Shown here piece after piece: positions 51,361 through 53,340 of a stretch of DNA of 64,000 nucleotides; the stretch's first letter is position 1; every line of letters starts with the position of its first letter. The stretch is from Dictyostelium discoideum (lineage: Eukaryota): positions 3,008,001 through 3,072,000 of the forward strand of contig CM000152.2 of the NCBI GenBank assembly GCA_000004695.1, in the 5' to 3' direction. Under the pieces are notes generated by a model that saw only the letters and a program-made list of their open reading frames with translations, was not told the origin of the DNA and made no database searches. Both the position numbers and the translations under genes were made by a program.

Positions 51361-51767
51361 AAAGAAAGATAGAAAAAAAAAAAAAAAAAAAAAAAAAGAA
51401 ATAAACTTATTTTGTAAATATTTAATTTTTAAAAACAACTAAAGTCATAATATGAATGAGGTAATCATTTTTTACCAATTTTCTTGAGTTTGAATTTGGT
51501 TTAATTAAATATTGATCAATACTGGGTATTTTGGAATAATTAAAATACTTTCGTTAAAGTTTATATTTTTTATTAAAATTATTTTATTTTAATTATAATG
51601 AACATATTTTGTATAAAACTTAGATATGAAATAATCAATATATTTTCCCCATTTCTTTTCTGATTATATTATTCTTTTTCAAAAATCTTTTGAAACCCAA
51701 TAGATATTTAAATTAATTCTATTTTATTTAAATCGGGATTTGCATAAAAAAAAAATATCAAAAATGC

Positions 51768-51800
51768 CTGGATGGCTCAGTGGGTAGAGCGAGCGGCTAT
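51768..51800 (+). pseudogene. 5' half (positions 1-33) of a tRNA-Asn-like gene. Truncated in the anticodon stem and continued by unrelated sequence
   Basis: GCCTGGATGGCTCAGTGGGTAGAGCGAGCGGCT matches the intact tRNA at 52646 at 31/33 positions, including ~12 bp of upstream flank (ATCAAAAAT). It is followed by ATTAGTTATTTTT, not the anticodon loop. Confidence 0.6.
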
Positions 51801-51960
51801 TAGTTATTTTTATCATTTAATTGAAAATATTTTAATGAAATATTTAAAAATGGACTTTTTTTTTAATGGAATAACGCAATTTTTAGTTGCTTCTTCTTGA
51901 GATATGACTCATTTTATTAATTTTATTTTTAGATATTACAGGTGCCTTTTGGGGTTGTAT

Positions 51961-52009
<49 letters not shown>

Positions 52010-52631
52010 TTGGGGGGTGTAGAGTGTGTTTAGTGACGTAATATATTTGTTGAGGTTTGATGGTAGTGCTACTGTGTGTAGTGGTGAGTTCCAGTGTTTG
52101 CTAAATCTTTCGAGTTGTAGGGAGATGATGTTTTTGAATTTTTTTATTTGTTCGTTGTTGGTTGCTTTTTTTTCTTGTCTGATTAGTTTGTATATGTTGT
52201 TTTTTGTTCTTTCCCAGGCTGCTGTTTGAGTTTTCTTTAGTTCGTGTACTAGTAGTTGTTTTCTTAAGTTTTTGAGTGTTATTCCTTCGTGGATTTTCTT
52301 GTTTCTTCTTCTCCAGATGTTTTCGCAAATAATGGCTATGGCGTTGGCTGTTAATGGAATGTCTAGTCTGTTGAAGATTTCTATTCCCCAATTGATTCTG
52401 GATCCTCCAGATTTTTCTTGAATGTAGTTGATGCACTCTTGAGTTTCTTTAATGTGTGATTTGCATTTGAAGAAGATGTGTTCTGAGGTTTCCTGTTCGT
52501 TACACCAGATGCAAGGGGCGTTGTGGATCTTTGGAAGAGCTTTAAGAGCTAATCTCCATAGGAGGTCTCTTCTTTTCAAGTTGACTATTTTCCTGATTTA
52601 TTTTAAAATGGACAGGAGCAAAAAAAACGAA
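51961..52631 (-). mobile_element. 5'-truncated tRNA-gene-targeted non-LTR retrotransposon fragment (TRE-like): C-terminal ORF2 with CCHC zinc knuckle plus 3' poly(A)45
   Basis: Minus-strand ORF open from ~52600 to TAA at 52004. It encodes ...LKALPKIHNAPCIWCNEQETSEHIFFKCKSHIKETQECINYI... (C-x2-C-x8-H-x4-C, typical ORF2 C-terminus of L1-clade/TRE elements). 38-nt 3' UTR, then A45 (T45 on + strand, 51961..52005). The truncated 5' end abuts the 5' end of tRNA-Asn at 52646 (<50 bp), the characteristic Dictyostelium TRE target position. The span 51807..51960 may also belong to the element. Confidence 0.7.
52004..52600 (-). CDS. Retroelement ORF2 C-terminal fragment (no authentic start; truncated reverse-transcriptase tail with zinc knuckle)
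   Basis: Track ORF 52004..52579 (TTG pseudo-start). Upstream frame open to ~52600 with no ATG. Basic K/R-rich composition and higher GC than flanking DNA. Confidence 0.6.
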
Positions 52632-52645
52632 GTTTCATCAAAAAT

Positions 52646-52718
52646 GCCTGGATGGCTCAGTAGGCAGAGCGAGCGGCTGTTAACCGCTAGGTCCATGGTT
52701 CGATCCCATGTCTAGGCG
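52646..52718 (+). tRNA. tRNA-Asn (anticodon GUU), 73 nt, no intron, CCA not encoded
   Basis: Acceptor stem GCCTGGA/TCTAGGC (one G-U pair). D-arm GCTCAGTAGGCAGAGC. Anticodon stem-loop AGCGG-CTGTTAA-CCGCT (GTT at positions 34-36 with U33/A37). Variable loop AGGTC. T-arm CATGG-TTCGATC-CCATG. Discriminator G. Confidence 0.9.
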
Positions 52719-53340
52719 AAAATTTTGAAGCTCGAAAAAAATAAATCACAGGTTCAATTCCCGAAAAAACAGAAAACTAGAAAAAATCTCATTCAAAACT
52801 TCCATACAAACAAAAAACAATTCTCTTTATTAGATAATTTTTTAAATAAAAAATAAAAAAATAACTTTTTTAAAATTTTTTTTAAATAATGAAATTGTTA
52901 AAATGAGGGTAAAAATATTTATTTTAATATTTCAAAAGATTAAATTATTTATTTTTTCTATTTTTTTTAATTTTTTTTTTTTTTTTTTTTTTTTTTTCAA
53001 TAAAAGGTATTTTATAACATCAAGGATTAGCCACCTTTCGATATTCTTTCAATTATGTCATGTTAGTAAATTAAAAGGTTAATTTTTTATTTTATTTTAA
53101 AATTTTTAAATTTCCCAAACCCATCAAAGTATTTCATGACGAAAGCATTTAATGAAAAGTTGAATTGCTTAAAAAATTAATAAATTGATTTTCATTATTT
53201 TTTCACATTAACTAATTTTCAAAGATTAATGTGATAAAAAAAAATTATTTTTTTAATTTCCCAAACCTTTAAAAGCATTTCATGATGAAAAGTCAAATCT
53301 AACCCACCAAAACACAAATTCTTTGAAAATATTTCAAGTG

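Follow-up and report, generated by a model that had tools for sequence, protein, structure and literature searches.

Locus organization and the tRNA-Asn gene

The locus analysed here lies on chromosome 3 of an AX4-like strain of Dictyostelium discoideum, next to the flanking gene DDB_G0280375; all positions refer to the window, i.e., the whole 64-kb stretch of DNA that was analysed. A second AX4-like assembly (GCA_054883475.1, L005) is 99.7% identical to the window across 6 kb, and the differences are homopolymer lengths only. An intact tRNA-Asn(GUU) gene, the integration target at this locus, is located on the plus strand at 52646-52718 according to its acceptor stem (52645-52719 in the ARAGORN prediction). 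It is the sole tRNA called by ARAGORN within the window, and the gene is 100% identical across six genomes. Its immediate 5' flank (-32 to -1, 52614..52645) is ancestral and has been kept in the wild D. discoideum strain ACTFIW (L002) as well as in D. cf. discoideum (L010). On the other side, an external B-box-like motif, GGTTCAATTCC, can be read from the sequence at 52751..52761 (plus strand), 33 nt 3' of the tRNA. Such ex-B boxes have been described previously (PMC5911963), and the motif is kept as GGTTCGATTCC in ACTFIW.

Upstream of the gene, a dead 5' half of tRNA-Asn and a truncated retroelement are found. The initial annotation had proposed a TRE-type retroelement fragment at this place, which is borne out: it is a TRE5-type element, with a target-site duplication (TSD) and a C-module.

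Structure, integration site and family of the element

The element occupies 744 bp after 5' truncation, and all of its modules are on the minus strand. It begins at the truncation point (~52599), where the similarity to a related copy in locus L001 starts at ...AAATCAGGAAAATAG, with the C-terminus of ORF2 (52004..52599, about 197 codons, putative zinc-knuckle region, TAA stop at 52004-52006); the APE and RT portions of ORF2 have been lost through the truncation. This is followed by an internal oligo(A) of A43 (51963..52005, T43 on the plus strand), by a 98-nt C-module forming the 3' UTR terminus (51865..51962, kept in L001 6641-6739 and L006 3731-3822), and by a terminal oligo(A) of A9 (51856..51864, T9 on the plus strand), right after which three other element copies cease to be homologous. 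The minus-strand ORF called by the program (52004-52579) ends in ...NTLYTPQL* and contains a CCHC-type CX2C...HX4C region, in agreement with the ORF2 zinc-knuckle end that had been recognized between the repeat copies. Its zf-RVT match is weak (E = 0.0036, under the Pfam cut-off); D. discoideum retroelement ORF2 fragments share 92-96% identity with the ORF and are listed by one source as "Reverse transcriptase zinc-binding domain-containing".

Other element copies were retrieved via annotated protein fragments, and related ones are present at L001 6038-6748 (94% nucleotide identity), L006 3098-3830 (80%) and L001 3698-4311 (77%). In every copy compared, the A-run after ORF2 is internal and leads to a module of ~98 nt with the conserved sequence CCATACAACC..AAAAGGCACCTGTAA...GAGTCATATCTCAAGAAGAAGCAACTAAAAATTGCGTTATTCCATT, after which a short run of A8-10 ends the homology; the internal A-run is seen in L001, L006 and L005 and also in the TRE5-A-type copy described below. 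Judged from these alignments, the A43 stretch is an internal run and not the tail of the element. The poly-A tail of T45 reported in the initial annotation does exist as a T-run, but it measures T43 and stands before the C-module. The modular 3' end of these elements (ORF2, oligo(A), C-module, oligo(A)) can thus mislead, the long A-run being mistaken for the tail. The segment 51856-51962 (C-module and A9) should be counted as element sequence because independent copies located elsewhere share it in conserved form. It matches three of them, so that the question whether 51807..51960 is element-derived is answered positively for this part. One of the options offered earlier, an internal oligo(A) with a C-module-like terminus, is accordingly right for 107 of the ~155 bases formerly left unassigned, while the rest, 51803-51855, is the only host DNA among them.

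The element ends, set independently by comparing copies, are bordered by a TSD of 14 nt, with ATTTAAAAATGGAC on the left (51842..51855) and ATTTTAAAATGGAC on the right (52600..52613). The two are identical at 13 of 14 positions, for which the chance probability is about 4e-6. The right TSD copy and the ancestral flank 52614..52645 together make up the 46 nt that separate the 5' end of the element (52599) from tRNA +1 (52646). The arrangement is head-to-head, ORF2 and both oligo(A) runs being on the minus strand and the tRNA on the plus strand. Previous studies placed TRE5 integration 47 +/- 3 upstream of the tRNA (PMC5391098), or 44-54 bp upstream of the tRNA gene in opposite orientation (PMC5911963). 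In L001, element copies upstream of tRNA-Ser genes lie at distances of 44 and 47 nt and have TSDs of 14 and 15 nt. The integration site, the orientation and the TSD of the window element are canonical for TRE5.

As to the family, the ORF2 stop is followed by A43 and then directly by the C-module, and the 3' B-module is absent from the window element. According to a previous study, the C-module is common to TRE5-A and TRE5-C and absent from TRE5-B, and TRE5-C is without a 3' B-module; the C-modules of TRE5-A and TRE5-C are 78% identical (PMC3159450). The window C-module shows about 77% identity to that of a TRE5-A-type copy at L001 ~1161-3092, which consists of ORF2, A35, B-module, A30, C-module and A27. 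The B-module of this copy contains the ORF1 start MKITNNTT..., and its C-module has T15, C26, A35 and C38, numbered from the 3' end, which are the residues mutated in the hairpin study of the TRE5-A.1 C-module (PMC3159450). We infer that the window element is TRE5-C-like, a label that draws on the architecture and on the match to the published identity figure. Two more lineages, 77-80% identical (L006; L001 3698-4311), share the ORF2-oligo(A)-C-module architecture, so more than one subfamily fits it, and TRE5-C is the probable assignment in preference to a close relative.

Compared with published descriptions of TRE5-C, an L1-clade non-LTR element, nothing contradictory was noticed. The head-to-head position 46 nt from tRNA +1, the short variable TSD, the 5' truncation, the putative zinc-finger C-terminus of ORF2 and the 3' C-module without a 3' B-module all agree, and so does a predicted three-stem fold of the terminal 51 nt of the C-module, whose energy (MFE -11.45 kcal/mol at 22 C) is near the published TRE5-C value of -12.52. 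The hairpins showed no covariation in a comparison of three sequences only, and the C-module sequence strings gave no match in a literature text search. TRE5-A (DRE) is similar in targeting, orientation and TSD, in its oligo(A)-separated modular 3' end, and in its homologous C-module and ORF2 C-terminus. It differs in the ~290-bp B-module between ORF2 and C-module (L001 2628-2922), which is missing in the window element, and at the 3' end of ORF2 the two are only about 67% identical in nucleotide sequence.

The half-tRNA, the empty allele and related species

A direct repeat of 46 nt (51757-51802 and 52637-52682) brackets the element, with 43 of 46 positions identical. It is the unique match of its kind in the 64-kb window (blastn E = 1e-14), and 43/46 in one register would arise by chance with a probability of about 3e-18. 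The repeat consists of 9 nt of 5' flank (ATCAAAAAT, -9 to -1) and tRNA-Asn positions 1-37; the initial annotation was correct in describing it as real, whereas its figures of two mismatches and the first 33 nt of the tRNA become three mismatches and positions 1-37. The left copy, on the plus strand, is a dead 5' half of tRNA-Asn in which the A box is kept, the B box is absent, and a T5 run follows directly. Neither copy abuts the element: the left one stops 53 nt short of the element 3' end, and the right one starts 37 nt past its 5' end. The host spacer between the half-tRNA and the target site of the element (51803..51841) is collinear with L002 5038-5064.

The orthologous locus of the wild strain ACTFIW was retrieved via the neighbouring gene. 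The element is absent there, and the half-tRNA (4991-5037), a 72-nt spacer and the full tRNA are all present, with the starts of the half-tRNA and the gene 110 nt apart. This empty site, which the initial annotation had suggested seeking in other strains, reads ...gaaattaaaaat-GCCTGGATGGCTAAGTAGGCAGAGCAAGTGGCTGTTAA-agttatttttatcatataattgaaaatttaaaaatggtaaggagcaaaaaaaaacgaaatttcatcaaaaat-GCCTGG...(intact tRNA), with the target TTAAAAATGG in single copy. The element is found in the second AX4-like assembly as well as in the window, and the TRE5 insertion is thus polymorphic between D. discoideum strains, with filled and empty alleles. The locus is therefore a clean polymorphic example of a canonical TRE5 in sequenced strains of this species. 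Since the empty allele carries both repeat copies, the half-tRNA predates the element and did not arise with it.

Relative to the gene, the half-tRNA alleles of the window and of ACTFIW carry three differences each, without a single one in common. The lack of a shared derived change implies that the patch would still have been identical to the gene when the D. discoideum alleles split, and that it has been drifting since. The half-tRNA is probably a neutrally drifting pseudo-copy, for which such allele differences are expected.

Orthologous intervals in four relatives, D. cf. discoideum (L010), D. citrinum (L009), D. firmibasis (L007) and D. dimigraforme (L008), were found via an upstream ELMO-domain gene. 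Each has a single tRNA-Asn downstream of the ELMO gene, 100% identical to that of the window, and no half or second tRNA-Asn copy was found at the orthologous locus in any of the four. The half-tRNA is consequently a D. discoideum-specific patch of ~47 nt. In D. cf. discoideum, the tRNA flank -45 to -1 (aaaaaacggttaggagcaaaaaaaacgaaatttcatcaaaaaa) matches the right-hand portion of the spacer in D. discoideum, which indicates that the spacer is ancestral flank. The D. firmibasis flank showed no significant similarity to either D. discoideum segment, and the -9 flank motif ATCAAAAAT is conserved in that species too.

Origin of the repeat and alternative explanations

The arrangement is very probably the product of two separate events superimposed at one locus, an older half-tRNA patch and a younger canonical insertion of a truncated TRE5-type element. 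In the older event, in the D. discoideum lineage, a patch of ~47 nt (-9 to +37/38) would have been copied from the tRNA-Asn gene into A/T-rich DNA that lies about 72 nt 5' of it. Most likely, replication or the repair of a break would have involved a templated insertion or a template switch, with an A-run as microhomology. The product would have been a dead half-tRNA comprising the 5' side of the gene, A box included and B box absent, and left to neutral drift. It is also possible that the template was a different tRNA-Asn paralogue, because the -9 flank is conserved in D. firmibasis as well. In the younger event, in the lineage leading to AX4-like strains, a TRE5-type element integrated by target-primed reverse transcription at the canonical site, 5'-truncated to 744 bp and with a normal 14-nt TSD. 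By chance it inserted between the half-tRNA and the gene, so that the old repeat seems to bracket it. The limits of the element, its TSD, spacing and orientation, the empty allele and the lack of a half copy in four outgroups are direct observations.

The patch resembles templated insertions of the TMEJ/MMBIR type in being a ~47-nt copy of a sequence ~110 bp away that sits within an A/T run and lacks any co-duplicated flank, an A-run apparently providing microhomology on its left side. It exceeds most templated insertions in length, and later indels have blurred its junctions; the patch limits relative to the outgroup are likewise blurred by further indels in the AT-rich DNA. Chimeric retro-pseudogenes of the U6/L1 type also join a fragment of a Pol III RNA gene to a non-LTR element. 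Here, in contrast to them, the fragment is at the 3' side of the element and in opposite orientation, so that both its side and its strand are wrong; the half-tRNA includes untranscribed or leader flank, and it occurs without the element in ACTFIW. A reverse-transcriptase template-switch chimera, or a 5' transduction, was rejected for the wrong side and strand and for the half-tRNA that exists without the element in ACTFIW.

The initial annotation had taken the ~50-bp repeat for the TSD of the element. An unusually long TSD of ~46-50 bp, produced by integration in or beside the tRNA body, would agree with a highly significant repeat that physically flanks the element; however, the element-free ACTFIW allele has both repeat copies, they are set apart from the element ends by 53 and 37 nt of host sequence, and the real ends carry a TSD with 13/14 identity, which makes such an origin extremely improbable. 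An aberrant integration repaired by gene conversion, offered before as one way to obtain so long a TSD, is unnecessary. A further option of the initial annotation was a tandem tRNA pair followed by deletion, in which case the half-tRNA would be the relic of a second, formerly intact tRNA-Asn gene whose 3' half was deleted. The left copy opens with the short 5' flank motif of the gene, shared with D. firmibasis, and the break of homology at 37/38 could be a deletion end-point. The orthologous locus of four relatives nevertheless contains a lone tRNA-Asn gene without remnants of another, the alleles of the half-copy share no derived change, which fits a young local copy, and the sequence after the break resembles outgroup flank and not a deletion scar; a tandem pair is therefore very doubtful. 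The initial annotation had itself named as contrary evidence a second, independently decayed tRNA gene together with an ordinary short TSD elsewhere, and of these two the short TSD was found, at the element ends.

Two further explanations address the patch itself. An earlier retro-insertion that hit the anticodon loop, with a short A-tailed insert bordered by a ~58-bp TSD (-20 to +38) and the intact gene regenerated, could be read from GGAGC-A9 in the spacer just before CGAAATTTCATCAAAAAT, from a GAAAT(T) motif ahead of both copies, and from the loop sequence TGTT/AA, which resembles an endonuclease nick site. It has almost no probability, as the single tRNA-Asn of D. cf. discoideum is preceded immediately by GGAGC-A8-CGAAATTTCATCAAAAAA, so that the supposed insert is ancestral flank, and as the spacer and the DNA 5' of the half copy are not significantly similar. 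A simple tandem duplication of 110 bp (-72 to +38) by slippage or unequal exchange, with later decay or deletion of the flank of the upstream unit, has a low probability. True tandem 39-nt units of flank and tRNA 5' end at the tRNA-Ser(GCU) genes in L001 provide a precedent for it, and a weak collinear similarity is present over the last 40 nt (p = 0.04). Against it, the flank upstream of the half-copy is not significantly similar to the spacer (p = 0.89 and 0.24), while the tRNA part is 92-94% identical, and an extra deletion event is needed. When the spacer was aligned by Smith-Waterman with the DNA preceding the half copy, the scores were no better than those of shuffles, and this dissimilarity counts against a plain 110-bp tandem duplication.

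With an older patch and a younger element as the preferred explanation, the locus is an ordinary, essentially known situation. It had been presented as informative about TRE targeting through TFIIIB/TFIIIC; it shows canonical TRE5 behaviour instead, and a false lead is removed, since the locus gives no evidence of non-canonical TRE5 integration or of unusual TFIIIB/TFIIIC-directed cleavage.

The 39-nt tandem units in L001 comprise flank and the first 17 nt of the tRNA and are located upstream of all three tRNA-Ser(GCU) genes there. These units suggest that duplication of tRNA 5' ends may recur in the Dictyostelium genome. A broader proposal is that, in the TRE5 landing zone, breaks at Pol III-bound tRNA genes recurrently leave repair scars in the form of partial tRNA 5'-end copies. 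Examples would be the 47-nt patch ~72 nt upstream of tRNA-Asn and the 39-nt tRNA-Ser(GCU) units in L001. The breaks may come, e.g., from aborted TRE5 integration or from replication-transcription conflict. We regard this proposal as unlikely; if it were true, the scars would be a genome-wide footprint of failed retrotransposition attempts.

Finally, two lineage-specific segments border the region. A segment of 124 bp (51633..51756), ending in GCAT-A10-T and directly 5' of the half-tRNA, was delimited by blastn of the window against L002 and by alignments. It is present in the AX4-like lineage (the window and L005) and missing in ACTFIW and D. cf. discoideum. An extra, lineage-specific segment of ~112 bp (52765-52876) comes after the ex-B box. 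No second copy of either (51633-51756 and 52765-52876) was found across the ~170 kb of Dictyostelium DNA examined. The left junction of the tRNA patch coincides exactly with the 124-bp AX4-lineage segment.

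Length differences around the tRNA-Asn genes

A 124-bp segment (51633-51756), whose 3' end reads GCAT-A10-T, terminates precisely where the half-tRNA, the dead 5' half of tRNA-Asn, has its left junction. This segment is present in AX4-like assemblies and missing in strain ACTFIW as well as in D. cf. discoideum, and no second copy of it was found across the Dictyostelium DNA compared; it may represent a short retro-fragment or filler DNA. On the other side of the half-tRNA, the spacer at 51803-51855 includes ~15 additional nt (attttaatgaaatat) when compared with strain ACTFIW (5038-5064 of its orthologous locus, L002). 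These nucleotides have the appearance of GAAA(A)TATTT(T)AAT duplicated locally in tandem, a further sign that the AT-rich flank is indel-prone.

Downstream of the intact tRNA-Asn, an external B-box-like motif (GGTTCAATTCC, 52751-52761) is directly followed by an extra ~112 bp (52765-52876) that is also missing in strain ACTFIW (L002). Rich in A and C, it could be a further small remnant of a retroelement, lying in the landing zone of TRE3.

Orthologous tRNA-Asn genes in other species

The orthologous tRNA-Asn is targeted by retroelements in other species too, namely D. dimigraforme (L008, 6280-7695) and D. firmibasis (L007, 6964-7100). In the former, LTR-like repeats (TTGGTAAAGGG.TATTTTTCACAC) stop ~13 nt upstream of the tRNA-Asn, a positioning similar to that of DGLT-A; in the latter, non-AT-rich sequence starts right downstream of the gene.

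Tandem units upstream of tRNA-Ser(GCU)

Tandem ~39-nt units were observed immediately upstream of tRNA-Ser(GCU) genes (three of three) in L001, a D. discoideum chromosome 3 locus, at 1114-1165, 5838-5882 together with 6762-6910, 10249-10345, and 4311-4400. Such partial duplications, involving the 5' ends of tRNAs, may be recurrent. Each unit joins ~22 nt of 5' flank to tRNA nucleotides 1-17 (GACACCTTAGCAAAGTG), and one pair of units shares 25 nt without mismatch. These arrays also host TRE5 insertions, the elements being located within them.
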